Origin: Candidatus Eiseniibacteriota bacterium | Lineage (GTDB): Bacteria > Arandabacterota > Arandabacteria > Arandabacterales > Arandabacteraceae | Direction: 5' to 3' | Length of the DNA: 49,920 bases | NCBI GenBank assembly: GCA_043810925.1 | Contig: JBDRNT010000055.1 | Coordinates: 1 to 49,920 of the forward strand | In this document: positions 25,103 through 43,075 of the stretch, one piece after another | Position numbering within the stretch: position 1 is the stretch's first letter | How the letters are laid out: the number at the start of each line of letters is the position of its first letter | Position numbers and translations under genes: made by a program | Notes under the pieces: generated by a model | Database searches by the model: none | Told to the model about the DNA's origin: nothing | Seen by the model: the letters and a program-made list of their open reading frames with translations, nothing else

Positions 25103-25636
25103 ATGGTTGGTGACAAGTGCGACCACACTTGGAGGATGACAAATCTCAGAGACGGCTTCATAGTAACCGAAAGATGCTATCACTGTAACAAGGATCGCGT
25201 GTACTTCTCATATGAAGATGTTCCTCCCAAAGACGAATACAAAGAGGACAATCACTACTGGAATTACGCCGGGAGCGCCCAGTCGGTCAAGTTCGATATG
25301 GTGTGCACTCAATGCGAGAAGACAGTGCCTTTTGAGGACCTGATGGGTCTGATGCATTGCGTGAGCTGCGACCAAGGGTGTCACCTCAACATACTGTCCC
25401 GGATCTGCGAGGGGCAGAATATCTGGCTCTATGCGGCCCTTTCTTATCAAATGGGAAAAGAGGTCGATCTACCGGTGGAAAAGCTGGTGGTGCTGACCGA
25501 CTACTTCACGTCACGGCTCCGCACACCCGGCAAGAAAATACTGGTTGTACCCGGTTCGCTTACACGGAAACCCGATACATGTCGTGGCGAGATGCTCAAG
25601 GACGTGGGTATGCTCAGCCTGACCCCGGAGGGTTAG
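25103..25636 (+). CDS. Cys-rich hypothetical protein (three CxxC), first gene of the redox operon
   Basis: GGGAG RBS + ATG 25103; CYHC, CTQC, CVSCDQGC. Confidence 0.75.
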   Translation: MVGDKCDHTWRMTNLRDGFIVTERCYHCNKDRVYFSYEDVPPKDEYKEDNHYWNYAGSAQSVKFDMVCTQCEKTVPFEDLMGLMHCVSCDQGCHLNILSRICEGQNIWLYAALSYQMGKEVDLPVEKLVVLTDYFTSRLRTPGKKILVVPGSLTRKPDTCRGEMLKDVGMLSLTPEG

Positions 25637-25661
25637 ATCGCCAATTGAAGGAGGCCAAACC

Positions 25662-26000
25662 GTGACAGTCAAAGACCTGGAAGCCAAACTGAATCTCAAG
25701 CCTTTGAACAAGGTCAATGAGACCGAGATCGACGGCGCCTTCATCTCCGACATGCTCAGCGACGTCATGGCGGGCGCACAGCCGGGCAGTGTGTGGATTA
25801 CGGTCCAGACCCACAAGAACATCATTGCCGCTGCAAATCTGGTTGATGTTCCTGCAATCATAGTCGTGAGAAGCAAGAAGGTTCCGGAAGACACGATCCA
25901 GATGGCCGACAAGGTCGGAGTGACCGTCTTCGGGACAGATCTCGATTCGTTCAAGATCGCCGTTCAGCTCTACGAAGCCGGCCTGAAGCCTGCCGGATAG
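25662..26000 (+). CDS. DRTGG-domain protein
   Basis: SDMLSDVMAGA, VWITVQTHKNIIAAA; GGAGG RBS + GTG. Confidence 0.85.
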   Translation: MTVKDLEAKLNLKPLNKVNETEIDGAFISDMLSDVMAGAQPGSVWITVQTHKNIIAAANLVDVPAIIVVRSKKVPEDTIQMADKVGVTVFGTDLDSFKIAVQLYEAGLKPAG

Positions 26001-26068
26001 GCGATCAGGACCGATCCATCCTGTGCGGACCGGCCCTTGAGCGCCATGCCGCACAGACAGGGAACGAT

Positions 26069-26434
26069 ATGCAGAAACTCAGTGTTGAGAAGCTGCAGTC
26101 CCACTATCGTGACCTGAAGAACCGCAAACACTCCAAGCGGGTAATCGTTCATATGGGTACGTGCGGTATAGCATCCGGCTCCGAGGGAGTACTTGAGGCT
26201 GTTCTCTCAGCTTCAGAGGAACTCGGACGGTCGGGTGTCACCATTAAGACCACAGGGTGTGCCGGGCTTTGTTCGCGCGAGCCGATGATGACGGTGGAAC
26301 TCCCCGGTGCGCCTCCTGTGAAGTACTGCGATCTCGATGGAGCCAAGGCCAGACATATCTACTCGGAACATGTGCTTGGGGGCAAACCCGTCAGCAAGTA
26401 TGTTCTCGGTGCCGGTGCCGAAAGCCTCCACTAG
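26069..26434 (+). CDS. Thioredoxin-like [2Fe-2S] ferredoxin (HydD/HndB-like)
   Basis: VHMGTCGIASG, TGCAGLCSREP, EHVLGG. Confidence 0.85.
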   Translation: MQKLSVEKLQSHYRDLKNRKHSKRVIVHMGTCGIASGSEGVLEAVLSASEELGRSGVTIKTTGCAGLCSREPMMTVELPGAPPVKYCDLDGAKARHIYSEHVLGGKPVSKYVLGAGAESLH

Positions 26435-26463
26435 GTTGTACCCGGATGTAGAAAGGACATCGC

Positions 26464-27345
26464 TTGATCGAGCTTGTTCTTCTCGTACTGGAGCAAGAAC
26501 CCGGAAGACGGAGTGAGTTAGAGAGCGCACTGACCGGCGAGGGGTATGCCGTACGACTGGTCTCCGATGGGGCCGCGCTTCTTTCCGAGATAGGTGCAAG
26601 ACCTCCCCATCTCGTTATCCTTGATCTCGATATTCCGCATGACGACGGTTTGATGCTCTTAAAGACCGTGCACGATATCATGCCTATGGTTCCGATCATC
26701 GGCGAGACCGTATTCCCGACTGTTGAGGGGGCCGTGGAAGCGATGCGGAGAGGAGCTTACAACTATATTTCCAAGTTCAGCCCCGTGTCGACTCTCTCAG
26801 GTATGATATCCCATGCACTGGGTAAGGAACGCATGGAGGTCGAAACCAAGGAGCGAGCCAGGGAGCGGAGGATCAAGAGTTTCGATGATCCCGCCAGTCT
26901 CGCCGCGATCGACGGAATTCTTGCCAAGCATCGCTTTTCCGAATCGATGCTGATTTCCTACTTACAGGATATACAGAAGGAGCTCAACTACCTGCCCCAG
27001 GAGGCGCTGAGATTCGTGGCGGGAAGAGTCAACATAGACCTGTCGCGGGTATACGGCATAGCGACCTTTTACAAGACATTCAGCCTGCTTCCGAGAGGAA
27101 GACACATGATCCACGTGTGCCTGGGGACCGCGTGCCATGTGAGGGGTGGCGCGAATCTTCTCGACAGTTTCGAGCGGGAGCTGGGGATTCACACGGGAGA
27201 GACCACCTACGATGACAAGTTCTCACTCGAGTCCGTGAGATGCGTCGGCTGCTGCGGATTGGCGCCGGTATTCATTATTGACGGGAAATTCTACGGGAAG
27301 ATGACCCAGGAGAAGATCCCGCAGGTTCTGGGTGGATATGACTGA
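26464..27345 (+). CDS. Response-regulator receiver domain fused to NuoE/HydC-like [2Fe-2S] subunit
   Basis: N-terminal receiver (LVILDL, AVEAMRRGAYNYISK); C-terminal LQDIQKELNYLP, ATFYKTF, VCLGTACHVRG, VRCVGCCGLAP. Confidence 0.88.
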   Translation: MIELVLLVLEQEPGRRSELESALTGEGYAVRLVSDGAALLSEIGARPPHLVILDLDIPHDDGLMLLKTVHDIMPMVPIIGETVFPTVEGAVEAMRRGAYNYISKFSPVSTLSGMISHALGKERMEVETKERARERRIKSFDDPASLAAIDGILAKHRFSESMLISYLQDIQKELNYLPQEALRFVAGRVNIDLSRVYGIATFYKTFSLLPRGRHMIHVCLGTACHVRGGANLLDSFERELGIHTGETTYDDKFSLESVRCVGCCGLAPVFIIDGKFYGKMTQEKIPQVLGGYD

Positions 27346-29161
27346 GAAATCCGGCCGCAAGAAGATGACCGTGAGTGTGTGCTATGGCACATGCTGCGTC
27401 TTAAACGGGGCGCGGGGGGTGAAGCGGGCCCTGGAAGCTTCGCTCGAACGTCATAAGGTGTCCGCAAGGGTCAATGTTTCCGCCGGCAGGTGCAATGCAT
27501 ACTGCCATCTGGGCCCCGTCCTGACCGTCGAACCCGGTGGGACAATGTACGGGAACGTGACTGCCGCCGATGTGGAAGAGATAGTCAAGAAACATCTGGT
27601 CGGTGGGAAGACGGTGAAACGGCTCGCGGTCGGCGAGAAGCGCGGATTGGATGGGTTGCCATCGCTTACGGATGTCGGCTTTTTCAAGGATCAGGTCCTC
27701 ATTGCGATGCGAAACCGCGGACGGATCGATCCTGACAGCATCGATGATTACATCACCAATGAAGGCTATCTTGCGCTGCCAAAAGCTCTCACGCAGATGA
27801 AGCCGGATGACATCATAGAAGAGGTCAAGAAAGCGGGATTGAGGGGACGTGGAGGTGCAGGCTTCCCGACAGGGATCAAGTGGGGGATATGCAGGAAATC
27901 TCACGGCCCGGACGGCAAGTACGTGATCTGCAATGCCGACGAGGGAGATCCCGGCGCTTTCATGGACAGGAGCCTGCTTGAGTCCGATCCGCATTCGGTG
28001 ATTGAGGGGATGACGATCGGGGCACGCGCGATCGGGGCCGACGTCGGATACATATATGTGAGAGAAGAGTACCCGCTGGCACTCGAACGCGTGACGAAGG
28101 CGATTGATGTTGCTCATGAGTACGGTCTTCTGGGTGAGGACATCCTCGGGACCGGTTTTGACTTCGAGATAAATGTGGTAAGAGGTGCCGGGGCTTTCGT
28201 GTGCGGTGAGGAAACCGCATTGATGGCGTCGATAGAAGGCGAACAGGGACGGCCCAGACCGCGGCCACCATTCCCCGCAGAGAGCGGACTCTGGGGCAAG
28301 CCTACCAACATAAACAACGTTGAAACCTGGGCAAACGTGGCACCCATCATTTTGCGCGGGGCAGACTGGTACGCGTCACTGGGAACCGAGAAGAGCAAGG
28401 GGACAAAGGTGTTCTCGCTTGTGGGGAAGATAAAAAACACCGGTCTTATCGAGGTTCCGATGGGGACCACGCTCAGGCAGATCATATACGATATCGGCGG
28501 TGGGGTCCTTAAGGACCGGGAGCTCAAGGCCGTGCAGACCGGAGGACCCTCCGGCGGCTGTATCCCAACGTCCTTGATCGATCTTCCCGTGGATTATGAG
28601 GAACTCTCGAGGGCGGGTTCGATCATGGGGTCGGGGGGCCTGATCGTCATGGATGAGGATACCTGCATGGTCGATGTCGCCCACTACTTCCTGGCGTTCC
28701 TTGAGGAGGAATCATGCGGAAAATGCACACCCTGCCGGGAGGGAGTCAGGAGGATGAGAGAGATCCTCGGACGGATCGTCACAGGTGAGGGCAGGCGGGG
28801 TGATATTGAACTGCTTGAGAGTCTCGCAATAACGATCAAGGAGGCGTCACTCTGCGGTCTGGGATCGACGGCTCCCAACCCGGTACTCACGACGCTCAAG
28901 TACTTCCGTGACGAATATGAGGCACACATATACAAGAAGCGTTGTCCCGCCAAGGTCTGCAAGGCTCTTATCGTTTACAAGGTCGTTGCTGAGAAGTGCA
29001 CCGGCTGCCAGAGGTGTGTGAGGGCTTGTCCGGTGGGCGCATTGGCCGGGGCCCGGGCACAGCCACACAATCTGGATCAAGCCAAATGCATCAAGTGCGG
29101 CGCATGTTATGAAGTGTGCAAGTTTGACGCAATTGCCGGTGATGCGATCTTTGTGGAGTAG
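27338..29161 (+). CDS. NuoF/HydB-like NADH:flavin oxidoreductase subunit (FMN, long form with N-terminal 2Fe-2S and C-terminal 2x[4Fe-4S])
   Basis: LRGRGGAGFPTG, CNADEGDPGA, GAGAFVCGEET, SCGKCTPCREG, SLCGLG, two C-terminal CxxCxxCxxxC. Confidence 0.93.
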   Translation: MTEKSGRKKMTVSVCYGTCCVLNGARGVKRALEASLERHKVSARVNVSAGRCNAYCHLGPVLTVEPGGTMYGNVTAADVEEIVKKHLVGGKTVKRLAVGEKRGLDGLPSLTDVGFFKDQVLIAMRNRGRIDPDSIDDYITNEGYLALPKALTQMKPDDIIEEVKKAGLRGRGGAGFPTGIKWGICRKSHGPDGKYVICNADEGDPGAFMDRSLLESDPHSVIEGMTIGARAIGADVGYIYVREEYPLALERVTKAIDVAHEYGLLGEDILGTGFDFEINVVRGAGAFVCGEETALMASIEGEQGRPRPRPPFPAESGLWGKPTNINNVETWANVAPIILRGADWYASLGTEKSKGTKVFSLVGKIKNTGLIEVPMGTTLRQIIYDIGGGVLKDRELKAVQTGGPSGGCIPTSLIDLPVDYEELSRAGSIMGSGGLIVMDEDTCMVDVAHYFLAFLEEESCGKCTPCREGVRRMREILGRIVTGEGRRGDIELLESLAITIKEASLCGLGSTAPNPVLTTLKYFRDEYEAHIYKKRCPAKVCKALIVYKVVAEKCTGCQRCVRACPVGALAGARAQPHNLDQAKCIKCGACYEVCKFDAIAGDAIFVE

Positions 29162-29167
29162 ATCTGA

Positions 29168-29815
29168 ATGAGTGAAACTGTAAGCATCAGGATCGACGGA
29201 AGGAACCGGAAGGCCGAAAGGGGCCGCACCGTTCTCGAGGTGGCAAGGGAGATGGGAATAGAGATTCCGACGCTTTGCTACCACGAAGCCCTGACACCGA
29301 TCGGGTCGTGCCGGCTCTGCGTTGTCGAGGTCAACCAGGCGGGACGGACAAGAACGATGGCCTCGTGCGTGACACCCGTGGCGGACGGAATGGTTGTGAA
29401 GACGAAGACCAAGCTCATAACAGAAATACGCAGGATGATCATGACCCTGCTCCTGGCCCGGTGCCCCGATATCGAGATCATCAGGCAAAAGGCAAAAGAG
29501 CTCGGTGTCAGACGCAACCCGTTTCCGAAGGGTTCCGAAGACTGTTATCTCTGTGGCATGTGCGTCAGGGCCTGCAAGGAGATTGTCGGAGTCGGCGCGA
29601 TCGGATTTGCGCACCGGGGCCCCGAGAGTGAGGTGGTACCTCCCTTCGGCCAGGAATCAAATGTATGCGTGGGGTGCGGTACCTGCACCACGATCTGTCC
29701 TGCAAGAACGTTTGACCTTAAGAAGGTATTTGCGCGAAGGAGCCTTCACAGCGTCGGAGGCTCGAAAGATACTTTCAGATGCATTGTGTGTGAGACGCAT
29801 TACGGAAGTCCTTGA
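29168..29815 (+). CDS. NuoG/HydA N-terminal-like Fe-S protein (no catalytic domain)
   Basis: IPTLC...GSCRLCVVE...SC [2Fe-2S]; CYLCGMCVRAC and CVGCGTCTTICP; ends at 215 aa. Confidence 0.88.
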   Translation: MSETVSIRIDGRNRKAERGRTVLEVAREMGIEIPTLCYHEALTPIGSCRLCVVEVNQAGRTRTMASCVTPVADGMVVKTKTKLITEIRRMIMTLLLARCPDIEIIRQKAKELGVRRNPFPKGSEDCYLCGMCVRACKEIVGVGAIGFAHRGPESEVVPPFGQESNVCVGCGTCTTICPARTFDLKKVFARRSLHSVGGSKDTFRCIVCETHYGSP

Positions 29816-29832
29816 GCCTGGTTGAGGAGCCT

Positions 29833-31575
29833 ATGCCTGGAAAGGCGCGGACAAAGAAGAAATCGAAGAAGACGACGCGGGCCCCAAAGCGTCCTGTGAA
29901 GAAACCGCGGACAAAGCCGGTCCGGGCAAAGGGCGCAGGTGTCGCCGTCATGATATCACAGTGTGAGAGCGATCTCTCACGTCTGCTTGATATCGCCTCG
30001 CTTGAAGAACAGGTGACGGCGAATCCCGATGTGGCCCTGGTCAAGGTCCAGGATTATCCGTGTACGATCGCAAAGATAGACGGGATCGGCGCAGCGGTCG
30101 TCAAGGGCGGTCTGTCACATGTAGTCGTCGCCGGCAGCAGCGAGCGCCTGTACGGTAAGTTCTTCAGGGACATTCTGGCGCAGTCGGGCATCGATTCCTC
30201 CCTGGTTGAGTTTGCAGACATAAGCGGGCTTTTCACGGCGGCTCGACCCGGTTCGAAGAAGACAACGCTGTCAACCGCGCTGGGGCTGATAAACACGGCT
30301 GTTGCCCGGGTGGCCGGTGCGAGTCCCATGGAGAAGGTGGAGGCCGACATCAAACCGGTGTGCGTCGTGCTTGGTGGTGGTATAGCAGGGATGTCGGCTG
30401 CTGCGGCCATGGCCTCGAGGGGCGTTAAGACAATCATAGTGGAGAAGGACGACAGTATAGGGGGGCTGCTTAGGCGGCTTAACATAGTCTTCCCGTCCTA
30501 TATCGAGGCGTCCGAGTTCCTTGACAACCAGTCACGCAATATCGGTGCCGCCACGATCGAGGTGAGAACCGCAGTGGAGCCGGTCTCGGTCCGGGGTCAT
30601 GTCGGAAGTTTCGAGATAGAGCTCACAGGCGGTGAGAAGATCGAAGCGGGTGTGATAATTGTTGCCACCGGCGCGGACCTGTTGACACCTCAGGGTCTGT
30701 TCGGCTACGGCGAACGCAACCAGGTGGTCACCCAGGTGGAGTTCGAAGCCATACTCAAGCGCGGCGATGATCCCGGTTCAAACGTCGTGATGATCCAGTG
30801 TGTGGGGTCGCGAAATGATGAAAGACCTTACTGCTCGCGTATATGTTGTACGGCCTCAATCAAGAACGCGATTCTTATAAAGCAGAAGTTCCCGGTATCA
30901 CAGGTGACCATACTGTCGCGGGGCTTCGCAGGCTATGCCGGTGATCTTGACCGGGCCCGGGAAATGGGTGTGGACATTATCCGGTACTCACCGGAGAGGC
31001 CGCCCGTCCTCGGAGACACCACAGTCGAGGTCTTCGACCAGATATCCGAAATGGAAGCGCACATACCGTTCGACCGCGTAGTGCTTGCAGTGCCCATGCT
31101 GCCCCCGGCGACAAACAGTTCGCTCGCCGGGATGCTCAAGATTCCTACGGACAGCTACGGCTTCCTGGTCGAACCGCGGCTTAAGGTGAGACCCGAGGAG
31201 TATGCGCCGAGGGGGGTATTCGTTGCGGGGAGCGCCCACTGGCCGTCGACGATCACCGAGTCCATCGTACAGGGTTACGGTGCTGCTTCGCGGGCCTTCG
31301 ATCTCATCAGCCTCGGCAAGGTCGAGCGTTTCGCGCACACGACCAAGGTCGATCCGGACCTTTGCCGTGGTTGTGGCCGTTGCGAGGAGGTATGCCGGCA
31401 CGGCGCCGTCGACCTGATACTTGACGAGGACGGCATGAAGCGGGCAGAGGTGATTCCGATTCAGTGTGTCGGGTGCGGGGTGTGCGTCTCTGTCTGTCCG
31501 TCGGGCGCGCTTTCGCATGCCGACATGACGGCCCGGCGGATCGATCTGACGATTGAAGCGGCAGGGGGGATATAG
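29833..31575 (+). CDS. HdrA-like flavoprotein (degenerate N-terminal cluster domain)
   Basis: GGGIAGM, IIVATGA, MIQCVGSR...YCSRICC, GVFVAG, C-terminal 2x[4Fe-4S]. Confidence 0.88.
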   Translation: MPGKARTKKKSKKTTRAPKRPVKKPRTKPVRAKGAGVAVMISQCESDLSRLLDIASLEEQVTANPDVALVKVQDYPCTIAKIDGIGAAVVKGGLSHVVVAGSSERLYGKFFRDILAQSGIDSSLVEFADISGLFTAARPGSKKTTLSTALGLINTAVARVAGASPMEKVEADIKPVCVVLGGGIAGMSAAAAMASRGVKTIIVEKDDSIGGLLRRLNIVFPSYIEASEFLDNQSRNIGAATIEVRTAVEPVSVRGHVGSFEIELTGGEKIEAGVIIVATGADLLTPQGLFGYGERNQVVTQVEFEAILKRGDDPGSNVVMIQCVGSRNDERPYCSRICCTASIKNAILIKQKFPVSQVTILSRGFAGYAGDLDRAREMGVDIIRYSPERPPVLGDTTVEVFDQISEMEAHIPFDRVVLAVPMLPPATNSSLAGMLKIPTDSYGFLVEPRLKVRPEEYAPRGVFVAGSAHWPSTITESIVQGYGAASRAFDLISLGKVERFAHTTKVDPDLCRGCGRCEEVCRHGAVDLILDEDGMKRAEVIPIQCVGCGVCVSVCPSGALSHADMTARRIDLTIEAAGGI

Positions 31576-31996
31576 CATCAAAACAAAGGTGGCAATCGTG
31601 CCCTGCAAGTGGCATCCGCTTACAGCGATGGAGAACGCCGCGAAGGATGGCTTCACCTGTGAGGCAAATCCAACAGTCATACCGGTCAAATGCACCGGCC
31701 TAGTGAAGGTGTCTTTCCTTCTTAAGCTGTTCGCAAAGGGTCTCGAGGGAGTGCTGGTGCTGGGTTGTGAGGAGGGGGACTGCCACTACCACAACGGAAG
31801 CCAGAGATGCGGCCAGATAGTCAAGGAAACGCAGGAGATCCTGGAGATCGCCGGAATACCCGGACAACGCCTCGGTTTTCAAATGATATCGGAGAGCGGA
31901 GGAAAGGAATACAAGCGGGTGCTTGGAGACTTCCTCAAGCAGTTCAAGAAGCCAACCAGGGGGAGGAAACGTGTCGCTGCGGGCAGCCATAGATAA
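31553..31996 (+). CDS. MvhD/FlpD-like [2Fe-2S] subunit (start codon uncertain)
   Basis: PCKWH, VKCTG, GVLVLGCEEGDCHYHNG. Confidence 0.82.
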   Translation: MKRQGGYSIKTKVAIVPCKWHPLTAMENAAKDGFTCEANPTVIPVKCTGLVKVSFLLKLFAKGLEGVLVLGCEEGDCHYHNGSQRCGQIVKETQEILEIAGIPGQRLGFQMISESGGKEYKRVLGDFLKQFKKPTRGRKRVAAGSHR

Positions 31997-33113
31997 GACA
32001 AGAGCATATCTCTGCCTCGAGTGCGGCATCTGTACGGGCAGCTGTCCCGTTTCCAGGCATCACGACGCCTATTCACCGAGGCTGACGGTGGAGAAGGCGC
32101 TCCTCTTCAGTGAGGACGAGAGTGTGCATGACAGGGAGATTTGGAGCTGTCTAACATGCGGTACCTGTGACCTGCGGTGTCCGTCCACGGTTGATTTCAC
32201 GGGTTTCATGAGATCAATGAGGGGGCGCGCAAGACAGGTTGGTGAGAGCGGTGTCTGCACTCATGCGGACACACTCGCGGCCTTGATCGATCTTCAACGC
32301 ATGCCCGGCTTCAGAAGGCAGGCTTCCTGGCTCGGGCGAGGGGCTAAGACGCGGTCAAGGTCAAGCACGTATTACTTCGGAGGCTGCCTGCCGTTTCTCG
32401 ACGTGGTGTTTAAGGAAATAGGTTTCGATGGCAAGGGGATCGGGAACGCAAGTGTGCGCCTGCTCAATGAGCTCGGCATCGTACCTGCGGTAAGCGAAGG
32501 TGAGGTGTGCTGCGGTCATGATGAGTACTGGACCGGAGGAGACGATCTCGTTAAGGAACTTGCGAAACGTAACGTCGCGGCGATAAAGCGGACAGGGGCC
32601 AAGCGTGTCGTGTTCTCCTGTGCGGAATGCTATTACATGTTCAAACACGTCTATCCGGAGTTCGTAAGGGGTATGGGACTTGAGGTCGTCTTCCTCCTCG
32701 ATCTCTTAAGCGAGAAGATAGGTGACCTGCGTTTGAACCCGCACAAAGCCAGGGTGACCTACCACGATCCTTGCAGGATCGCAAAGTCCGACGACATAAT
32801 CGAGGAGCCTCGCCGGGTGCTTACGAGCATACCCGGTCTCGAGCTGGCGGAGATGAAGCGGACGGGCAAAGATGCCCTCTGTTGTGGTTCCAGCAGTTGG
32901 GTGAGTTGTTCGAGAGTAAATAAGAAAATCCAGGTTGAGAGACTTGATGAGGCCATATCGACAGGCGCTGAGGTGCTTGTCACCGCGTGTCCGAAGTGCA
33001 ACATACACCTGAGGTGTGCCCTCCGTGATGAGGATTGCTCAGGTAAAATAGAGATAACCGATGCGGTCACGCTTGTGGCCGGATCACTGGGAGGTAAGAA
33101 GCGTGGAAGGTAA
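31971..33113 (+). CDS. HdrD-like Fe-S oxidoreductase (HdrC ferredoxin + CCG domains)
   Basis: [51 protein letters not shown] + GTG 31971. Confidence 0.88.
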
Positions 33114-36083: not shown

Positions 36084-36085
36084 GT

Positions 36086-36874
36086 ATGAGTTTTAAACCG
36101 CACATCATAGCTTTCTGCTGTAACTGGTGAGCATACAGTGCGGCTGACCTCGCCGGGGTAGCGAGGTTTCAATATGCGCCCGACATCAGGGTTGTGAGGG
36201 TGATGTGTTCGGGCAGGGTGGATCCTGTGATGGTCATCGAGTCATTCATCGCGGGAGCGGACGGAGTATTCGTGGGCGCGTGCAAACGCGGAGAATGCCA
36301 TTATACGTCCGGTAACCTCCATGCCGAGGGCAAGATGGAAATGACCAGGCGAGTGCTCCGGATGGGCGGAATAGACCCTGCCAGAGTGCGGATGCGTATG
36401 ATGTCGAGTGCCGAGGGCAACAAGTTCGTCGAGTTCGCAGGTGAGTTTCAGAAGGACATCACCGAGCTGGGACCTCTGGGTAAGCCCGAGGGCATCGATA
36501 AGAAAGACCTTGAGATAAAGCTGCAGGCTGCCGGTAAGGCGCTCGGCGGCCGCAAGATCAGGTGGGTCACAGGCAAGATAGTCGAATTCACCGAAAAGGG
36601 AAACCTCTACGGGGAGAAGTTCACAGCCCATGAGATAGGAAGGCTCTTCGACGAGATAGCTATGGATGAATTCGGACTGAGAGAGATACTGGAGCGGCTC
36701 AAGGCCAGGCCCCATTCGGTAAAGGAGCTGGCCGCCAGGATGGAAACGGCACCGAAGATTCTAGTAAGACAGATGGCGGATCTTAAGAAGATGGGTTTTG
36801 CGGAGATACACTCGGTTGAGGGAAACACCCCTGTGTGGAGACTTTCGGGTAACGGTGAGACGGAATATGAGTGA
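36086..36874 (+). CDS. mvhD: Selenocysteine-containing MvhD-family subunit (TGA 36128-36130 = Sec15) with C-terminal winged-helix-like extension
   Basis: AAGGAG RBS, MSFKPHIIAFCCNW-TGA-AYSAADLAG...RVMCSGRVD...GACKRGECHY; in frame with the 36194 ORF. Confidence 0.92.
36128..36168 (+). promoter_or_regulatory. UGA codon plus putative SECIS hairpin (mvhD)
   Basis: Stem ACCTCGC (36147-36153), loop CGGGGTA, GCGAGGT (36161-36167). Confidence 0.72.
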
Positions 36875-38555
36875 TAAGTCTTCCCCGAGGGAAGTAGTCG
36901 TTGTCGGTGGTGGAATAACCGGGCTTAAGGCGGCGCTCGAGGCCGCGGGATCGGGCGCAAGGGTTGCGCTCGTAGAGGAGTCCCCGTTCCTCGGCGGGCT
37001 CCTGCTCAAGCAGGAACGGGTGGTTCCGGAGGGCTTCCCATCGGTCTGTCTTTCATCCAGGTTGGTGAATGAGGTTCTTGCGCACCCGGGGATCAGGGTA
37101 CTTACGAACTCGACCCTGGGGAGTGTGCGCAAGAAGGACGACAAGATCAAAGTCAGCCTTACTCACCAGCCCAGCAGGGTGACCGGGGCCTGTAACGCAT
37201 GTGCCGAGTGCCTGCTTGTTTGCCCGATAAAGCCTTATGACGGTTACAACGAAGGCTTGATGCTGAGGACGGCCATAGACTTTGCGGGGCCGCGCGCCTT
37301 CGGCGGCGAGTACAACATCGAGAAGGAAACACCCGCGTGCCAGGAACGATGCCCGGTCCACATAGACATAAGAAGGTATGTGGGGCTGATCGCCGGTGGG
37401 CGGTACGAGGAAGCGATAAGAGTCGTACGTGAAAAGAACCCGTTACCCGCGGTCTGCGGCCGGATCTGTCCTCATCCATGTGAGACCGTCTGTAACAGGG
37501 GCCGTCAGGACGAGGCGATTGCGATTGATGCTCTCAAGCGTTTCGTAAGCGACTACGAAATCGCACAGCGAAAAGCCGGCAAGTTCGTGGCGCCGAAGCC
37601 CAGGAAGGATCTTAAGACCAGGGTGGCCGTCGTCGGGGCGGGCCCTGCCGGTCTTACGTTTGCGCACGATCTCGCGCTCGAAGGCTATCGGGTGACGGTC
37701 TTTGAAGCCGCCCCCGTACCCGGCGGAATGATGCACCTCGGAATTCCCGAATACAGGCTGCCACGGGACATCCTCTTGAGTGATGTTGCTTACATTGAGG
37801 ACCTTGGTGTGGAGATAAAACTCAACACGCCTCTTACGAAAGAGTTCACGGTAGACGACCTCTTCAAGCAGGGCTTCAAGGGGGTCTTCCTGGGCGTGGG
37901 TGCCTACGAAGGCCTCAAACTCAGGGTGCCCGGGGAAGACGACTACGAAGGTTTTCTTGACTGCCTCAAGTTCCTCAGGGGTGTGAATCTCGGGGACAAG
38001 ACCAGGCCGGGTAACAAGGTGATAGTCATAGGCGGTGGGAACTCGGCGATCGACTCGGCAAGAACGGCGCTCAGGCTGGGTTGCGAGGAGGTCACCATAC
38101 TTTACAGGAGATCGCGAAGGGAGATGCCGGCAAACGACTGGGAGATCGAGGGAGCGGAGGAGGAAGGCGTCAAGATTCACTATCTCGCCGCACCGGTCAA
38201 GATCCTGGGTAAGGGTGGCAAGGTGGCAGGCATGGAGTGCACCAGGATGAGGCTCGGCAAACTCGATGCAAGCGGGCGAAGACGGCCGATTCCTCTTGAG
38301 GGTTCGGAATTCACGGTTGAGGCCGATCTCATCATCCCGGCCATCAGCCAGCAGCCGGATATCACGTTCCTACCGGACGAACATGGCTTCGAGATCTCGC
38401 GCTGGAACTCATTTGTGGTTGATGAACGGACGATGGCCACAAATCGTCCCGGCATCTATGCCGGGGGGGATGGTGTTACCGGGCCCGCCACGGTGATCGA
38501 GGCCATACGTGCGGGCCACATTGCAGCCGATTCAATGAAGGAGTACTTGCGTTAG
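36867..38555 (+). CDS. HdrA N-terminus/ferredoxin fused to GltD/NfnL-like NAD(P)H oxidoreductase (HdrL-like, first half)
   Basis: GGGITG, CNACAECLLVCP, PACQERCP, CGRICPHPCE, GAGPAG, GIPEYRLP, GGGNSAID, YRRS, AGGD. Confidence 0.88.
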   Translation: MSDKSSPREVVVVGGGITGLKAALEAAGSGARVALVEESPFLGGLLLKQERVVPEGFPSVCLSSRLVNEVLAHPGIRVLTNSTLGSVRKKDDKIKVSLTHQPSRVTGACNACAECLLVCPIKPYDGYNEGLMLRTAIDFAGPRAFGGEYNIEKETPACQERCPVHIDIRRYVGLIAGGRYEEAIRVVREKNPLPAVCGRICPHPCETVCNRGRQDEAIAIDALKRFVSDYEIAQRKAGKFVAPKPRKDLKTRVAVVGAGPAGLTFAHDLALEGYRVTVFEAAPVPGGMMHLGIPEYRLPRDILLSDVAYIEDLGVEIKLNTPLTKEFTVDDLFKQGFKGVFLGVGAYEGLKLRVPGEDDYEGFLDCLKFLRGVNLGDKTRPGNKVIVIGGGNSAIDSARTALRLGCEEVTILYRRSRREMPANDWEIEGAEEEGVKIHYLAAPVKILGKGGKVAGMECTRMRLGKLDASGRRRPIPLEGSEFTVEADLIIPAISQQPDITFLPDEHGFEISRWNSFVVDERTMATNRPGIYAGGDGVTGPATVIEAIRAGHIAADSMKEYLR

Positions 38556-38557
38556 AT

Positions 38558-40879
38558 ATGAAGAAACCGAAGTTCATATCCGAGTTCAAGGACATTCCTT
38601 CAAAGCGGCAGAAGATGCCCGAATTGCCGCTTGAAGAGAGGAGTCTCAACTTCGATGAGGTCGAACTCGGGCTTTCGGAGGAGATGGTTCTCAAGGAAGC
38701 GGCCAGGTGTCTGAGCTGCCGGCGCTGTATAGGTTGCGGGCTGTGTCTTGCAGAGTGTGATCCCAAGGCGATTGTCTACGATGAAGCGGCAAGCAGGGTC
38801 GATCTCGAAGCCGACGCCGTGATATTCACCTCCGACGGTCAGGCCTATAACCCCGCCGGGAAGAAGGAGCTCGGCTATGCGGATGCTGCAAACGTGATAA
38901 CCAGCTTCGAATTCGAGCGGCTCGTGAGTCCGACGGGTCCGTTCGGCGGGCTCCTTGTAAGACCTTTCGACGGGGACGTACCGAAACGAATCGCTTTCAT
39001 TCAGTGTGTCGGTTCGAGGGAAGAGGGGATAGGTGCGAACTTCTGCTCATCCGACTGTTGCTCGCGTACGTTTTCACAGGCCAACCACGCCAGGAAACTC
39101 ACCGGCGATGCAGAGGTCCATGTATTCCACAGAGGCCTGAGACCTGTGGGTAAAAGGAGTGAGCTCATTCTTTCCGAGCTTCAGGGCGAGAAGTGGATAG
39201 AGTTTACCGAGGCGGAGGTGGTCTCGGTCAGGGAGGATCCCCGGGACGGGACCGTGAGCGTTGAATACTCGGTGGCGGGCAAGACCGCCGAAGCGCAGTT
39301 CGATCTCGTGGTGCTTGCCGTTGGTATTCATGCGCTTGACGGTTTTAAGCGTTACGCCAGGACGGCGGGGATCAGGGTCAACAAGTTCGGGTTCATTGAA
39401 CGGAGCATAGGAAGCCTCATCGCCGGGACCGATGCTGTATCGTTCGGCGGGGCCGTATGCGGACCTGCTCCGGTTTACCGGAGTGTGATAGACGCTCTGG
39501 CAGCCTCAACAAGATCACTCAACTCCTCGGGGACGAAGCCTCCCAGACAGGCATCCCGTTCGAAGGGCAAGACGTCTGTACATGCCTGTGAGTACGGTCT
39601 TGAGCTTGCAGGTGTGAACCGGTCGGATGTCGAAGGGCTTTGCAGTGTTCACCCGTTCCTGTGTTACAGGGACGGCAGAGCTGCGATGAGCGCGAATCTG
39701 AATGAGACATCATCAATAGTCGTGGTTGGATGTCACAAAGGCAGTCATGAAGAGCTTTTCGAACAGGTCTGCGGTCTTCCCGGGGGAAGCGTCACGATCA
39801 TGGCCGGTGAAGATCTCACCGGCGATCTGAAGGCGAATCTGGCATCGATTATGGAGGGCTCCCCTGCCGCGCAGCCGCGACCGGAGGCCGGGAGTGACAA
39901 GAAACCCGCCAGTGTGGTCGTTGTCGGCGGGGGCACTTCGGGTCTGGCCGCCGCGAGTGAGCTTGTGCGACGCGGCGTAGAGGTGACAGTGGTTGAGAAG
40001 TCGGCAGAGATAGGTAGACCCCTGATTTTCGCCGCCATGGTGGAAGGCACCGAGGTCGATGCTGTTGACGGTTTTGTCAAGGCACTCGAGACGAATCCGG
40101 GTGCAACGGTACTCAAGGAAGGCACCGTGGCATCGGTGAAAAAATCGGCCGGCAAGATCACAGTCATGGTATCCACTCCAAAGGGCGAGAAGACGCTCGA
40201 AGCCGGGGCGATGCTCATTGCAACCGGAGCCGGCGCCTATGTGCCTGTGGGATGTCACCATGGAGAAGACGAGGCAATCCTGACCCAGAGTGAGTTCCGG
40301 CAGAGGATCAACGAAGGCCGGGCTTCCTGGAAGCGGGTGGCGATGATACAGTGTGTCGGGGCACGTACTGGCGAACACCCCTATTGCAGCAGATACTGTT
40401 GCAAGCAGGCCCTGGCCAACGTGCTCAGATTCAAGCAAGACAATCCTGATGCGGAGGTGACCGTCTTCCATAGAGGGATCAGGGTTTTCGGCTTCGAGGA
40501 GGATCTGTACACGGATGCCGGCGACCTCGGAGTAGACTTCGTCGAGATCACAGGTGAGCCGCGGATTACTACGGACGGGGCCCTTAAGGTAGCTGCCGAC
40601 TCGACGGATGGGAAGAGTTCTTCCCGTGAGTTTGACGCCGTGGTACTCTCAGTCGGGCATCTCCACGGACCGGACCATGAAGAACTGGCGCGTGTCAGCG
40701 GAGTCACGCTGGACGATCTCAGGTTTCTGGCGACAGGCGATCCGCTTGCCGCTCCGTTCGCGACGACGGCTTCCGGCATTTTCGCCTGCGGTTTTGCCCG
40801 GTCTCCGGTCATAGCCGAAGAGGCATTCGTTGACGGGGTGGGCGCTGCAGGCGCGATATGCAAGTATTTGGGTGTATGA
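38558..40879 (+). CDS. HdrA-like flavoprotein with two degenerate HdrA modules (HdrL-like, second half)
   Basis: Starts with NFDEVELG...EAARCLSC; FIQCVGSR...FCSSDCC; GGGTSG; MIQCVGAR...YCSRYCC. Confidence 0.85.
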   Translation: MKKPKFISEFKDIPSKRQKMPELPLEERSLNFDEVELGLSEEMVLKEAARCLSCRRCIGCGLCLAECDPKAIVYDEAASRVDLEADAVIFTSDGQAYNPAGKKELGYADAANVITSFEFERLVSPTGPFGGLLVRPFDGDVPKRIAFIQCVGSREEGIGANFCSSDCCSRTFSQANHARKLTGDAEVHVFHRGLRPVGKRSELILSELQGEKWIEFTEAEVVSVREDPRDGTVSVEYSVAGKTAEAQFDLVVLAVGIHALDGFKRYARTAGIRVNKFGFIERSIGSLIAGTDAVSFGGAVCGPAPVYRSVIDALAASTRSLNSSGTKPPRQASRSKGKTSVHACEYGLELAGVNRSDVEGLCSVHPFLCYRDGRAAMSANLNETSSIVVVGCHKGSHEELFEQVCGLPGGSVTIMAGEDLTGDLKANLASIMEGSPAAQPRPEAGSDKKPASVVVVGGGTSGLAAASELVRRGVEVTVVEKSAEIGRPLIFAAMVEGTEVDAVDGFVKALETNPGATVLKEGTVASVKKSAGKITVMVSTPKGEKTLEAGAMLIATGAGAYVPVGCHHGEDEAILTQSEFRQRINEGRASWKRVAMIQCVGARTGEHPYCSRYCCKQALANVLRFKQDNPDAEVTVFHRGIRVFGFEEDLYTDAGDLGVDFVEITGEPRITTDGALKVAADSTDGKSSSREFDAVVLSVGHLHGPDHEELARVSGVTLDDLRFLATGDPLAAPFATTASGIFACGFARSPVIAEEAFVDGVGAAGAICKYLGV

Positions 40880-40895
40880 ACCGCAGGAGGCTTCA

Positions 40896-41255
40896 TTGAC
40901 ACTAAGGGAGATTTGCCGGGCCATAGAGTGCGAGGTGATTACGGGCGAGGATATGCTCGATCACGATTTCAAGGAAGTGTGCGGCGCCGACCTCATGAGT
41001 GATGTGCTCGCATTCGCCGCACCGGGAGGGATTCTCCTCACGGGCTTAAGGAATGTCCAATCCGTCATAACCTCTCATGTAGCAGAGGTGCAGGCGATAG
41101 TCTACGTGCGCGGGAAGAAGCCCGATGAGGATGCGGTGAAGCTGGCCGTACAGAAGGGAATTCCGCTCCTGTCCTGCCCGCTTTCGATGTTCGAAGCGTG
41201 TGGCCGCCTTTATGAGAAGGGCATGAAATCCGGAAACCAGATTGGTGGAAAATGA
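40896..41255 (+). CDS. DRTGG-domain protein
   Basis: AGGAGG RBS + TTG; GADLMSDVLAF, LLTGL, VRGKKP, MFEACGRLY. Confidence 0.85.
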   Translation: MTLREICRAIECEVITGEDMLDHDFKEVCGADLMSDVLAFAAPGGILLTGLRNVQSVITSHVAEVQAIVYVRGKKPDEDAVKLAVQKGIPLLSCPLSMFEACGRLYEKGMKSGNQIGGK

Positions 41256-41683
41256 GCGATGAAGTTCTGTTTTTCCAGGAGTTCTCGGTGCTGGGCAAGG
41301 ACTTCACCAAGGCGGGTTCGGTCTCTACGGAGATAAAGTCGATTCTTAAGGAAATCGGTTTCGATCCCGCGAAGGTCAGACGGGCTGCCATTGCATCGTA
41401 TGAAGCGGAGATGAACATAGTCATGTATGCCGACAGAGCGGTGGTGCGACTGTCTGCTACCCCCACGAGCATACGAATCGAGCTCGAGGATGAGGGCCCG
41501 GGTATCGAGTGTATCGAACGCGCGATGGAGGAGGGCTATTCGACCGCGACTCCCGAAATGAGAGAGATGGGTTTCGGAGCAGGTATGGGACTCCCGAACA
41601 TAAAGCGTAACGCAGATGACTTCGAGATTGCATCCGAGGTGGGGAAGGGCACCAGACTGGCCATAACCATACACACGAGCTAG
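41252..41683 (+). CDS. RsbT/anti-sigma-factor-like Ser/Thr kinase (HATPase_c)
   Basis: YEAEMNIV, EDEGPGI, GYSTA, GFGAGMGLPNI, GKGT. Confidence 0.88.
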   Translation: MSDEVLFFQEFSVLGKDFTKAGSVSTEIKSILKEIGFDPAKVRRAAIASYEAEMNIVMYADRAVVRLSATPTSIRIELEDEGPGIECIERAMEEGYSTATPEMREMGFGAGMGLPNIKRNADDFEIASEVGKGTRLAITIHTS

Positions 41684-41685
41684 CG

Positions 41686-42978
41686 ATGGGAAAATACTAC
41701 CACCCCATACAGTTTGTCGGCGAGAGATGCGGCGGCAGAATGAAGTGCATGCGCAGCTGCCCCACCGCGGCCATCAGGATGCGTGACGGCAAGGCAAGGA
41801 TGATTGAAGAGCTTTGCGTGGATTGCGGCGAATGCATAAATGTCTGCCCCTCCGGAGCGATCGTACCACTTACCGATCCCTTCACCCGGTCTCTGGATTT
41901 CAAATACAAGGTAGCCCTACCCTCACCGGTGCTCTATTCGCAGTTCAGGCCCGAGGTCGATCCGAGAAGGATCATCACGGGTCTCAAGCGGATCGGATTC
42001 GACTATGTTTGTGATGTCTCGCGCGCCTGTCGAGAGGTGAGCATAGCGATCGATGAGTCCATTGCCCAGCACAGGGGCAGGCTCCCCGTTGTCTCCTCGT
42101 TCTGCCCTGCGGTTGTGCGGTTGATTCAGGTCAAGTACCCGGACCTGACGGGCAGGGTTGTGCCTGTGGATGTTCCCCGGGAGATAGCTGCGAGGGATTT
42201 TAAGCAGAATCTCTCACATGAGCTCGGTGTGGATATCGGGGAGCTCGGGGTGGTCTATATCACGACCTGTCCTGCGAAAATCGTTTCAATCAAGCAGCCC
42301 GCCGAGAAGGAAAAGTCATGGATAGACGGCGCCGTGTCGATTGTCGATGTCTTTGCCCCTCTCTTCTCAGCGGTCGCCGACCTTGAGGATGATGAAATAG
42401 ACGAGGATGTGGCCCGGGACTTCACGTTCGGTGCCGGCTGGTCCATGTTGGGGGAGATGACCAGACTGATCGGCGCGGAGCACTCGATCGCCGCCTCCGG
42501 TATGAGCGATGTTACGAAGATCCTTGATGATATCGAGAACTCCAAGCTCAGAGATGTGGAATTCGTGGAGCTTTCCTCCTGCCTGGGAGGATGCATCGGG
42601 GGATCGCTTGTCGTTGAGAACATGTATGTCGCACGGAGCAGCACCTTGAACCTGCTCAGAAAGTATGGGGGAAAGGTTGAGGTTGACAGAGACGAGGTTA
42701 TAGAGAAGTATAATAGGGGTCATTATTCACTTGAAAAGAAGCTCGCCCCCAGACCGCTTCGGCCGCTTGACGGCAATCTGGCCAGGGCGATTGAGAAAAA
42801 GAAACGGAAGGATACAATATACAATGCCCTGCCCAAGATTGACTGCGGATGCTGCGGCGCTCCTACTTGTATTGCTTTCGCCGATGACATCGTCCGCGGG
42901 GATGGCCACATAGAGGACTGTATCTACATGGGAGGTATCAAAGATGGGAAGAGGAGATCGAAAGACGAGGAAGGGTAA
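41686..42978 (+). CDS. Non-canonical (group C/D-like, putatively sensory) [FeFe]-hydrogenase-like protein with N-terminal 2x[4Fe-4S] and C-terminal FeS domain
   Basis: Variant H-cluster motifs SSFCPAVV, TTCPAK, ELSSCLGGCIGG; C-terminal LPKIDCGCCGAPTC. Confidence 0.82.
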   Translation: MGKYYHPIQFVGERCGGRMKCMRSCPTAAIRMRDGKARMIEELCVDCGECINVCPSGAIVPLTDPFTRSLDFKYKVALPSPVLYSQFRPEVDPRRIITGLKRIGFDYVCDVSRACREVSIAIDESIAQHRGRLPVVSSFCPAVVRLIQVKYPDLTGRVVPVDVPREIAARDFKQNLSHELGVDIGELGVVYITTCPAKIVSIKQPAEKEKSWIDGAVSIVDVFAPLFSAVADLEDDEIDEDVARDFTFGAGWSMLGEMTRLIGAEHSIAASGMSDVTKILDDIENSKLRDVEFVELSSCLGGCIGGSLVVENMYVARSSTLNLLRKYGGKVEVDRDEVIEKYNRGHYSLEKKLAPRPLRPLDGNLARAIEKKKRKDTIYNALPKIDCGCCGAPTCIAFADDIVRGDGHIEDCIYMGGIKDGKRRSKDEEG

Positions 42979-43075
42979 GATCTGGAAGAAAAGCTCGGGT
43001 AACGCCCGCCCTCGTAAGAAGAAGAAGATCAAGACAAAGGCCGCAGCCGCGAAGACATCCGAGCCAACCGCGTAG
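42944..43075 (+). CDS. thx: 30S ribosomal protein THX (bTHX/bS31 family), 43 aa; not in ORF track
   Basis: GGAGGT RBS (42931-42936); MGRGDRKTRKGKIWKKSSGNARPRKKKK... matches the THX signature GKGDxxTxRGKI...G..RP. Confidence 0.85.
   Translation: MGRGDRKTRKGKIWKKSSGNARPRKKKKIKTKAAAAKTSEPTA

Follow-up and report, generated by a model that had tools for sequence, protein, structure and literature searches.

A seventeen-gene operon of Nuo- and Hdr-type proteins

The window, a DNA stretch of 49,920 nucleotides (contig C55, JBDRNT010000055.1) from the genome of a Candidatus Eiseniibacteriota bacterium (G000; 3.85 Mb, 185 contigs, 91.7% complete), carries 17 co-oriented genes at positions 25103-42978 of the plus strand. 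The order of the gene products is a Cys-rich protein, DRTGG1, a small ferredoxin, NuoE, NuoF, a NuoG stub, HdrA1, MvhD1, HdrD, HdrA2, HdrA3, MvhD2, HdrLa, HdrLb, DRTGG2, a small ATPase and an [FeFe]-hydrogenase-like protein. All long open reading frames (ORFs) of the interval lie on the plus strand, and from 25662 to 42978 the genes overlap or are separated by gaps of at most 68 nt. Families were assigned by Pfam and NCBIfam scans. A sequence-only reading of this DNA had described an operon of NuoE-, NuoF- and NuoG-like genes, five HdrA-like ORFs, two MvhD genes and HdrD, wrapped in hydrogenase-type regulators. Every gene type that it named was recovered in place on the plus strand with strong family matches, and the gene set was correct except that the last gene encodes the [FeFe]-hydrogenase-like protein and no Hdr subunit. 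The scans also bore out the absence from the locus of a [NiFe] large subunit, formate dehydrogenase (FDH) and aldehyde ferredoxin oxidoreductase (AOR).

Selenocysteine codons in HdrA2 and MvhD2

The HdrA-like ORFs were first delimited by translation table 11, with which two ORFs of the operon began late: HdrA2 at position 199 of the HdrA model and MvhD2 at position 32 of FlpD. Reading an in-frame TGA as selenocysteine (Sec) extended both upstream into their absent conserved parts. The HdrA2 gene (33103-34398; table-11 ORF, 33286-34398) starts at GTG 33103, with the Shine-Dalgarno sequence GGAGG 8 nt 5' of the start, and its TGA (33268-33270) is read through in DCSIUILAPK, forming a Cys53-x-x-Sec56 pair. 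The MvhD2 gene (36086-36874, 262 aa; FlpD, 2e-29) starts at ATG 36086 behind a good ribosome-binding site, and its TGA (36128-36130) is read through in MSFKPHIIAFCCNWUAYSAAD, with the motif CCNWU and Sec15.

Codons at both sites were counted over 63 related loci, taking matches of at least 55% identity as HdrA2 orthologues. All 27 orthologues had TGA at the HdrA2 site; among 85 weaker HdrA-like matches the site was a Cys codon in 44 and TGA in one. For MvhD2, 41 of 44 long orthologues had TGA and the remaining three a Cys codon, while short MvhD paralogues carry Cys, His or another residue there. The genome encodes SelB (375.8 bits; cut-off, 242) and a tRNA-Sec on contig C89. Hairpins with GGUC and CGGGGUA loops start 18-24 nt past the UGAs; their folding z-scores (-0.50 and -0.34) were not significant. 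In both genes a conserved in-frame UGA falls where homologues have Cys, and the genome encodes the Sec machinery. These are features by which bacterial selenoproteins are recognized, and on this sequence evidence HdrA2 and MvhD2 are selenoproteins.

HdrA, HdrL and HdrD proteins

HdrA2 consists of the FAD domain with the Cys-x-x-Sec pair and the inserted ferredoxin, without the N-terminal domain and the C-terminal ferredoxin domain, and matched residues 142-567 of the 5odc HdrA at 3e-131. HdrA3 (34395-36083; HdrA2 family model, 3e-149, positions 1-232 and ~327-651) has the N-terminal Cys-cluster domain, the FAD domain and the C-terminal 2x[4Fe-4S] part, lacks the inserted ferredoxin and the CxxC motif, and matched HdrA structures in PDB at about 3e-121 to 2e-120. 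Judged by domain content, the two are complementary halves on two genes, each keeping what the other has lost. A stop or a change of frame separated them in all 30 loci examined. An HdrA2-HdrA3 fusion in relatives, hinted at by shared open frames, was dropped on this count; a true double-HdrA fusion (1033 aa) occurred only in a paralogous cluster on contig C45.

HdrA1 (29812-31575; HdrA2 family model, 4e-92 in two stretches) may have a later true start. It has 36% identity to HdrA3 and keeps the C-terminal 2x[4Fe-4S] part; the inserted ferredoxin and the CxxC/U motif are absent and its N-terminal domain is Cys-poor. The Lys of the motif CCMYxxK, which by alignment count corresponds to Lys409 of 5odc HdrA and presumably contacts the flavin, is present in HdrA1, HdrA2 and HdrA3.

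The five HdrA-like ORFs of the sequence-only reading all exist under table 11, but the fourth and fifth turned out to be halves of a single HdrL-type unit. HdrLa (36867-38555, start ATG 36867; table-11 ORF, 36798-38555; Fer4_20, 2e-23; Pyr_redox_2, 3e-42) joins the N-terminal part of an HdrA FAD domain to a GltD/NfnB-type module with 2x[4Fe-4S], FAD and an NAD(P)H site. HdrLb (38558-40879, 773 aa) completes the GltD module with its tail, which has a 4-Cys motif, likewise completes the first HdrA FAD domain, and then adds a second HdrA-like FAD domain that lacks the C-terminal ferredoxin. The PRK12771 match spans both genes (45-446 in HdrLa, 2e-138; 471-545 in HdrLb), and the HdrA2 family model matched 138-301 before the GltD module in HdrLa (4e-30) and 285-556 after it in HdrLb, so that the GltD/NfnB-type module occupies the site of the inserted ferredoxin domain of HdrA. 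The split is no assembly error, because a stop lies between the halves in all 54 loci in which they are adjacent. Fused HdrL forms were seen in other loci (G035, with an open frame of 1487 aa, L042 and L105).

The HdrD-like protein (31923-33113; CCG, 6e-31 in two stretches; Fer4_8, 3e-10) is a fusion of HdrC and HdrB. It carries two CxxCxxCxxxCP motifs and two complete CCG motifs (10 Cys), both C..CC..CxxC motifs being complete.

NuoE, NuoF, NuoG stub and MvhD adaptors

The NuoE/HydC-type subunit (26464-27345) bears an additional receiver domain (Response_reg, 2e-16; 2Fe-2S_thioredx, 6e-48; HoxE and NuoE models, 7e-46 and 1e-38) and is followed by a HydB-type NuoF (27332-29161; Complex1_51K, 2e-47; NADH_4Fe-4S, 3e-34; nuoF_fam, 4e-154). 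NuoF has 2Fe-2S_thioredx at residues 8-87, the FMN/NADH core and Fer4 at 550-600 (2x[4Fe-4S]). Together the two proteins show the hallmarks of BfuB (N-terminal 2Fe-2S, FMN core, C-terminal 2x[4Fe-4S]) and of the 2Fe-2S subunit BfuC. The third subunit (29168-29815, 215 aa; Fer2_4, 3e-22; Fer4 families) is an N-terminal stub of NuoG/HydA. It carries one [2Fe-2S] and two [4Fe-4S] motifs in a Cys pattern that was invariant across 14 orthologues, has lost the motif for the His-ligated cluster, and contains neither an H-cluster domain nor a Mo-pterin domain. A small thioredoxin-like [2Fe-2S] ferredoxin (26069-26434; 2Fe-2S_thioredx, 5e-04, a weak match) precedes these genes as a NuoEF accessory; it had 54-92% identity in relatives and has a paralogue beside a second NuoEF set on contig C99.

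In the short MvhD1 (31553-31996; FlpD, 1e-27), all four cluster Cys are retained and the position of the Sec of MvhD2 is taken by His; its CKWH motif was conserved in orthologues. MvhD2 matched MvhD structures in PDB at about 2e-41 to 4e-40 over residues 1-133 only, and the extension beyond residue 133 was well conserved in 33 orthologues. The structure prediction (predicted local distance difference test, pLDDT, 86.8; predicted template modelling score, pTM, 0.85) showed an MvhD core, the conserved helical segment and a C-terminal winged helix-turn-helix at residues 197-238 (post-Sec numbering) with pLDDT above 90. The fold search returned methanogen MvhD and generic winged helix-turn-helix proteins with ArsR/MarR-type folds.

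Regulators and the [FeFe]-hydrogenase-like protein

The operon opens with a Cys-rich ORF (25103-25636, ~177 aa, several CxxC pairs) that matched no Pfam or NCBIfam family. Its counterparts had 62-78% identity and lay directly upstream of DRTGG1 in all four relatives with that flank, and it is probably part of the control or assembly of the operon. Two DRTGG proteins of putative regulatory function, DRTGG1 (25662-26000; DRTGG, 3e-05, just under the Pfam cut-off; conserved in relatives) and DRTGG2 (40830-41255; DRTGG, 3e-06), share 31% identity. DRTGG2 is followed by a small SpoIIAB-like ATPase/kinase, also regulatory (41252-41683; HATPase_c_2, 4e-08; anti-sigma F model, 2e-11, below cut-off).

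The last gene (41686-42978, 430 aa; Fe_hyd_lg_C, 1e-25; FeS, PF04060, 1e-11) encodes a protein with 2x[4Fe-4S], an H-domain and a C-terminal PF04060 Fe-S domain, and is the sole Fe_hyd_lg_C match in the genome. It is distant from solved [FeFe] hydrogenases (best match, 9e-17). The four Cys ligands of the H-cluster are kept (SSFCP, TTCPAK, SSCLGGCIGG), and the proton-relay Cys is replaced by Phe. We take the putative sensory [FeFe] hydrogenases of the HydS type to share these two features and to lie beside NuoEF-type genes and kinase-like regulators. The protein resembles them in its Cys ligands, its replaced proton-relay Cys and the adjacent kinase-like regulators, and differs from them in having no PAS domain by Pfam, in its PF04060 domain and in the maturases. 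Of the ligand Cys and the maturases that together mark an [FeFe] hydrogenase, only the ligands were found: HydG had no match in this genome nor in the other 17 genomes of its class, and HydF had no match over cut-off in this genome (HydE was not searched for). In the HydG search, six of the 41 genomes covered, all of them unrelated, scored over cut-off. H2 sensing by the HydS-like protein is doubtful because HydG is absent from 18/18 class genomes, and the likelier role of the protein is that of an Fe-S redox sensor.

The gene triplet of DRTGG2, ATPase and HydS-like protein follows HdrLb in relatives, and the ATPase and HydS-like genes did so in 20 of 31 loci with enough downstream sequence. 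The hydrogenase-type regulators proposed earlier hold up in that the DRTGG, ATPase and HydS-like genes travel with the locus; the missing HydG makes H2 sensing by the last of them doubtful.

Conservation and genomic context

Seven relatives, which belong to the same family and taxonomic order, have the 16 genes from DRTGG1 to the HydS-like gene in this same arrangement, with proteins 47-96% identical, and in all seven the NuoEF-stub and Hdr genes overlap or abut. In two class-level relatives (G016 and G017), only HdrA1-like through HdrLb were kept, between unrelated genes. A wider scan with an HdrLb alignment against species-representative genomes gave the 63 loci; being seeded with HdrLb, it cannot tell how frequent a BamDEF-like core without HdrL is. 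The closest named loci were in metagenome-assembled genomes (MAGs) labelled Candidatus Eisenbacteria or Eiseniibacteriota, and relatives with the former label share the arrangement gene for gene. Other labels were Zixibacteria, KSB1, Gemmatimonadota, Methylomirabilota, Aminicenantes, B38, TA06, Zhuqueibacterota, Coatesbacteria and Desulfobacterota, and the core from HdrD to HdrL was encountered in numerous uncultivated phyla.

HdrLb was full-length in 37 of the 63 loci. HdrLa, the long MvhD and HdrA3 occurred in every one of the 20 full-length loci for which at least 7.5 kb of upstream sequence existed, and HdrA2 and HdrD in 18 of them. NuoF or the stub lay within 10 kb upstream in 11 of 18 full-length loci, and the linkage of NuoEF to the Hdr genes was also seen in MAGs labelled KSB1, Coatesbacteria and Eiseniibacteriota (L060, L077, L080). 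The arrangement is real and no chance association, and within it the NuoEF module is accessory.

A malic enzyme gene adjoins the block in one locus (L037:7871-9211) and sits inside it, between the long MvhD and HdrLa, in another (L074:4970-6523). Its occurrence in two distant lineages is a weak hint at an NADPH link.

The flanks of the operon consist of unrelated genes, namely sulfatases, secreted proteins with type IX secretion system (T9SS) tails and B12-radical SAM genes; in relatives they were likewise unrelated. Directly 3' of the operon, positions 43260-47933 encode a protein of 1557 aa in which a papain-like protease domain is combined with lectin-like, beta-helix and fibronectin III domains; it is probably a secreted protein that has nothing to do with the operon. 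At 48143-49765, two consecutive ORFs (283 and 251 aa) represent a B12-binding radical SAM gene and divide the Radical_SAM model between them, a pattern suggestive of a frameshift or of a gene that is truly split.

Desulfobacterota-labelled MAGs carried a different version. In four loci (L092, L094, L095, L097), a block of HdrD-HdrA-HdrA-long MvhD-HdrL lies between nuoD and nuoE/F/G/H...N, and in the Desulfobacterota-labelled loci L090-L097 HdrLb is shortened to ~254-300 residues. The nuoD gene was just upstream of the homologous block in four of the five Desulfobacterota genomes searched, and downstream of it were NuoH (L097), the molybdopterin part of NuoG (L094), NuoL/M/N (L092) or NuoE/NuoF (L095). 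NuoH is the next gene in L092 and L097 (Pfam-tested in L097, assigned from size and position in L092), with no NuoE/F/G seen between core and NuoH. The literature covered, to which the HdrA-module review of Appel et al. (2021) did not belong, held no description of the operon or of an Hdr block within nuo operons.

Comparison with known systems

The class II benzoyl-CoA reductase (BCRII) of Geobacter metallireducens has the composition Bam[(BC)2DEFGHI]2 according to a preprint on the enzyme (10.64898/2026.04.10.717634). In that text, BamGH is a HydBC-type confurcating unit and BamI a three-cluster connector; BamF is an MvhD that exceeds the usual length by over 100 residues and has Sec19 and a BamI-docking winged helix; BamE is a fused HdrA pair with Cys59-Cys62 next to the bifurcating FAD; and the HdrD-like BamD passes the high-potential electron to electron-transferring flavoprotein (ETF).

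The operon contains a counterpart of each of these subunits, and the parallel to BamD-I without BamBC drawn by the sequence-only reading was borne out. NuoE and NuoF are of the HydBC type (BamG- and BamH-like) and are joined by the three-cluster NuoG stub (BamI-like). The long MvhD2 has Sec near its [2Fe-2S] site and a predicted winged helix, as BamF does; the complementary HdrA pair has a Cys-x-x-Cys/Sec pair near residue 55-60, as BamE does; and HdrD is a CCG subunit like BamD, the order HdrD-HdrA2-HdrA3-MvhD2 being that of bamD-E-F. The operon differs in lacking BamBC, with no AOR-family gene in the locus, and in having the BamE equivalent on two genes with Sec as the second residue of the redox pair. 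Its HdrD keeps both complete CCG motifs and its NuoE carries a receiver domain. Further differences are an added Sec-free HdrA1-MvhD1 pair and the two-gene HdrL with its NfnB-type module. The middle segment of the predicted MvhD2 is helical, unlike the second Rossmann domain described for BamF. This likeness is one of domain features to a published description; no BCRII chain was among the PDB matches, the copy searched containing BamBC only.

HdrL is known as a heterodisulfide reductase/glutamate synthase fusion from Desulfobacterium autotrophicum and Syntrophobacter fumaroxidans, and sulfate reducers repeatedly carry it as a stand-alone pair with an MvhD gene behind it (PMC2702500, PMC5947623). 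The HdrA-NfnB protein of ANME-1 has its NfnB module placed within HdrA in the same arrangement (PMC9012536). In line with that paper, asymmetric split HdrA pairs are also on record. The unit of the operon is similar in its HdrA FAD domain interrupted by a GltD/NfnB-type NAD(P)H module, in the adjacent MvhD and in the Sec in its neighbourhood. It differs in being two genes (54/54 loci) placed after its MvhD rather than before, and in its tie to a BamDEF-like core and NuoEF.

In the Bfu family of HydABC-type bifurcating enzymes (BfuABC), Schut et al. (2022; PMC9304861) describe, for a clade with Bam-, Wor- and F420-linked members, a BfuA reduced to one 2Fe-2S and two 4Fe-4S clusters. The operon has the hallmark domains of BfuB, a BfuC subunit and BfuA as a bare three-cluster stub, and its added subunits are Hdr and HdrL proteins. 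With the HdrABC-MvhAGD complex of methanogens it shares the CCMYxxK motif and the HdrB-type CCG motifs. It differs in that a hydrogenase is missing, HdrA is an asymmetric two-gene pair and HdrB and HdrC are fused as HdrD; CoM-S-S-CoB cannot be the substrate in this bacterium.

The operon matched no characterized complex gene for gene; such a match is one of the results that the sequence-only reading had named as refuting it. All of its part types have been described; what differs is their combination without a substrate enzyme and with an added HdrL NADPH module.

Catalytic partners and acceptors elsewhere in the genome

The proposed absence of a catalytic input subunit extended to the relatives: in 18 full-length related loci the upstream flank could be followed for 10 kb, and none showed a hydrogenase, FDH or AOR there; nor did a hydrogenase gene lie beside the operon in any of the 63 loci mapped. 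A search of the genome for partners returned an AOR, a two-subunit [NiFe] hydrogenase and a DsrC. The single AOR-family gene (C94) matched formaldehyde ferredoxin oxidoreductase (FOR; 1b25) at 7e-134 and BamB (4z3w) at 4e-49 over the N-terminal domain only, and is by these matches FOR/AOR-like rather than BamB-like. Contig C8 encodes both the small and the large [NiFe] subunit together with HypF, HypB and MvhD; HdrA is absent from it. Molybdopterin proteins are encoded on C8 and C99, and four further HdrA loci lie on C45, C72, C115 and C161. None of these genes, nor the NuoEF set on C99, is located beside the operon.

Several of these clusters are built from related parts. On C99 (L012:1104-10381), the second NuoE/2Fe-2S/NuoF set is followed by a histidine kinase and a sigma-54 response regulator, and a 1233-aa fusion combines a NuoG N-terminus, a GltD module, an Nqo3 ferredoxin domain and a molybdopterin domain. 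On C45 (L011:2384-12096), the alpha, beta and gamma subunits of a 2-oxoacid:ferredoxin oxidoreductase (OFOR) run into the fused double HdrA, MvhD and HdrD, and the cluster ends with another HdrA with an in-frame TGA and then MvhD; it resembles an Hdr system linked to OFOR. In the unrelated genome of L043 (G018:C33:1-14144), an HdrA-N/NuoE, a 2Fe-2S protein, NuoF and a 1066-aa fusion of NuoG stub, HdrA and HdrA precede MvhD, after which come the small and the large subunit of a [NiFe] hydrogenase. This cluster is a relative of the operon that is linked to a hydrogenase.

The minus strand of C91 (47292-47594) encodes a protein of the DsrC family in which both redox Cys are present (C-x10-C-V end); DsrA was not found in the genome. 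DsrC occurred in 11 of the 18 class genomes. DsrC and ETF are candidate acceptors for HdrD. DsrC as an obligate partner was rejected, its presence and absence not tracking the cluster.

Proposed function

We consider, with roughly even confidence, that the operon encodes a soluble, Se-dependent confurcation/bifurcation assembly, which would be BamDEFGHI-like without BamBC and would act as a hub for NADH, NADPH, ferredoxin and an acceptor on the HdrD side. Its wiring is inferred by homology to the BCRII and Hdr structures. NADH and ferredoxin would exchange electrons at the FMN of the unit formed by the receiver-NuoE, NuoF and the NuoG stub, and mid-potential electrons would run through the three clusters of the stub. 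MvhD2, with its [2Fe-2S] cluster and Sec15, may then relay them to the FAD of HdrA2/HdrA3 beside Cys53-x-x-Sec56, where the flavin would split the electron pair. The high-potential electron could pass through the noncubane-cluster motifs of HdrD to a disulfide-type or ETF-type acceptor, and the low-potential electron through the inserted ferredoxin domain of HdrA2 to ferredoxin or to the two-gene HdrL, whose NfnB-type module is expected to bind NADP(H). As a whole, the assembly would reversibly balance the NADH, NADPH, ferredoxin and thiol/disulfide pools. No further catalytic subunit would be needed, since the pyridine nucleotides are themselves the substrates. Together with the ATPase and the DRTGG proteins, the HydS-like protein and the receiver domain of NuoE may adjust the assembly according to the redox state of the cell and not according to H2.

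A number of observations weigh against this proposal. The NuoEF module is missing beside the core in 7 of the 18 loci with 10 kb upstream, so that the two blocks may not form one complex, and the wiring leaves the role of HdrA1-MvhD1 unexplained. The CCMYxxK Lys, tried as a marker of the bifurcating flavin, is uninformative, being common to all three HdrAs. DsrC was not found in the cluster-bearing genomes G005, G016 and G017 (~96% complete each) and occurs in G006, where the HdrLb search gave no match. The C8 hydrogenase, which has an MvhD to itself, could be a docking partner for some HdrA, and the tie to complex I suggests a quinone-linked role in Desulfobacterota. The complex that the sequence-only reading called stand-alone is therefore not always so: in the Desulfobacterota MAGs the core lies inside a complex I operon.

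A possible but distinctly less probable explanation is that the operon encodes two or three separate, co-regulated enzymes and no single assembly: an NADPH-dependent bifurcating reductase of HdrL, MvhD2, HdrA2-HdrA3 and HdrD, and an independent module of NuoEF-stub, HdrA1 and MvhD1. G016, G017 and the seven loci that keep the Hdr block with no NuoEF nearby are consistent with this division, as are HdrA1 and MvhD1, which lack the Cys/Sec redox sites that mark the core, and the stand-alone HdrL-MvhD pair of sulfate reducers (PMC2702500, PMC5947623). What favours a single assembly over separate enzymes is the overlapping or abutting of the two gene blocks in 7/7 close relatives, their linkage in L060, L077 and L080, the NuoE/F/G genes that follow the core in the Desulfobacterota loci L094 and L095, and the fact that the same two module types form one complex in BCRII.

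It is unlikely that the operon is the acceptor half of an H2 system, in which the Mvh-like [NiFe] hydrogenase of C8 or another enzyme would feed the Hdr core in the manner of methanogen Mvh-Hdr. The gene content of C8 would suit such a role, L043 places a NuoEF-HdrA-MvhD cluster directly before [NiFe] subunits, and electron flow from Mvh to Hdr has been proposed for a neighbouring lineage (PMC13271369). Against a distant hydrogenase partner, the operon already holds two MvhD adaptors and two pyridine-nucleotide sites, the HdrA loci on C45, C72, C115 and C161 could serve the hydrogenase instead, and 0/63 loci have a hydrogenase gene beside the operon.

Equally improbable for the present operon is a role as the peripheral input module of a membrane-bound complex I-like enzyme, replacing NuoEFG and sending the high-potential electron to quinone. 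The Desulfobacterota loci speak for such a module, with nuoD on one side, NuoH, NuoG or NuoL/M/N on the other, and in L092 and L097 NuoH directly next. Here and in the relatives, however, the neighbours are genes for sulfatases, secreted proteins and radical-SAM enzymes and not nuo genes, and the short HdrLb of Desulfobacterota shows that the versions differ.

The operon might also be read as the electron-supplying part of a class II aryl-CoA reductase whose BamBC-type tungsten subunit is encoded elsewhere or missing from the genome assembly. This would account for the complete BamDEFGHI-like set with its Sec-containing long MvhD, but is very improbable given that the sole AOR-family gene of a genome of this completeness is FOR/AOR-like, that HdrL and HdrA1-MvhD1 are not part of Bam, and that no BamB-like gene flanks any related locus examined.

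Implications

If the soluble hub reading is correct and the proteins form one complex, stacked bifurcation modules would serve general redox-pool balancing in many uncultivated anaerobes, and the operon would offer a defined target for finding what the HdrD-type site reduces in bacteria. The tie of the core to complex I operons in Desulfobacterota would bear on how the 11-subunit complex I enzymes are fed. To our knowledge, the only solved assembly that joins HydBC-type and HdrA-type bifurcation modules is the class II benzoyl-CoA reductase. That assembly drives one very hard reduction; the operon keeps the supply machine, drops the enzyme and adds an NADPH module. More tentatively, we suggest that HydBC-type, Se-assisted HdrA and NfnB-type flavins act in one particle as a three-tier cascade and four-way hub, and that the core in Desulfobacterota replaces or supplements NuoEFG of complex I. 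If this were true, the result would be a bifurcating, NADPH-fed respiratory complex I.

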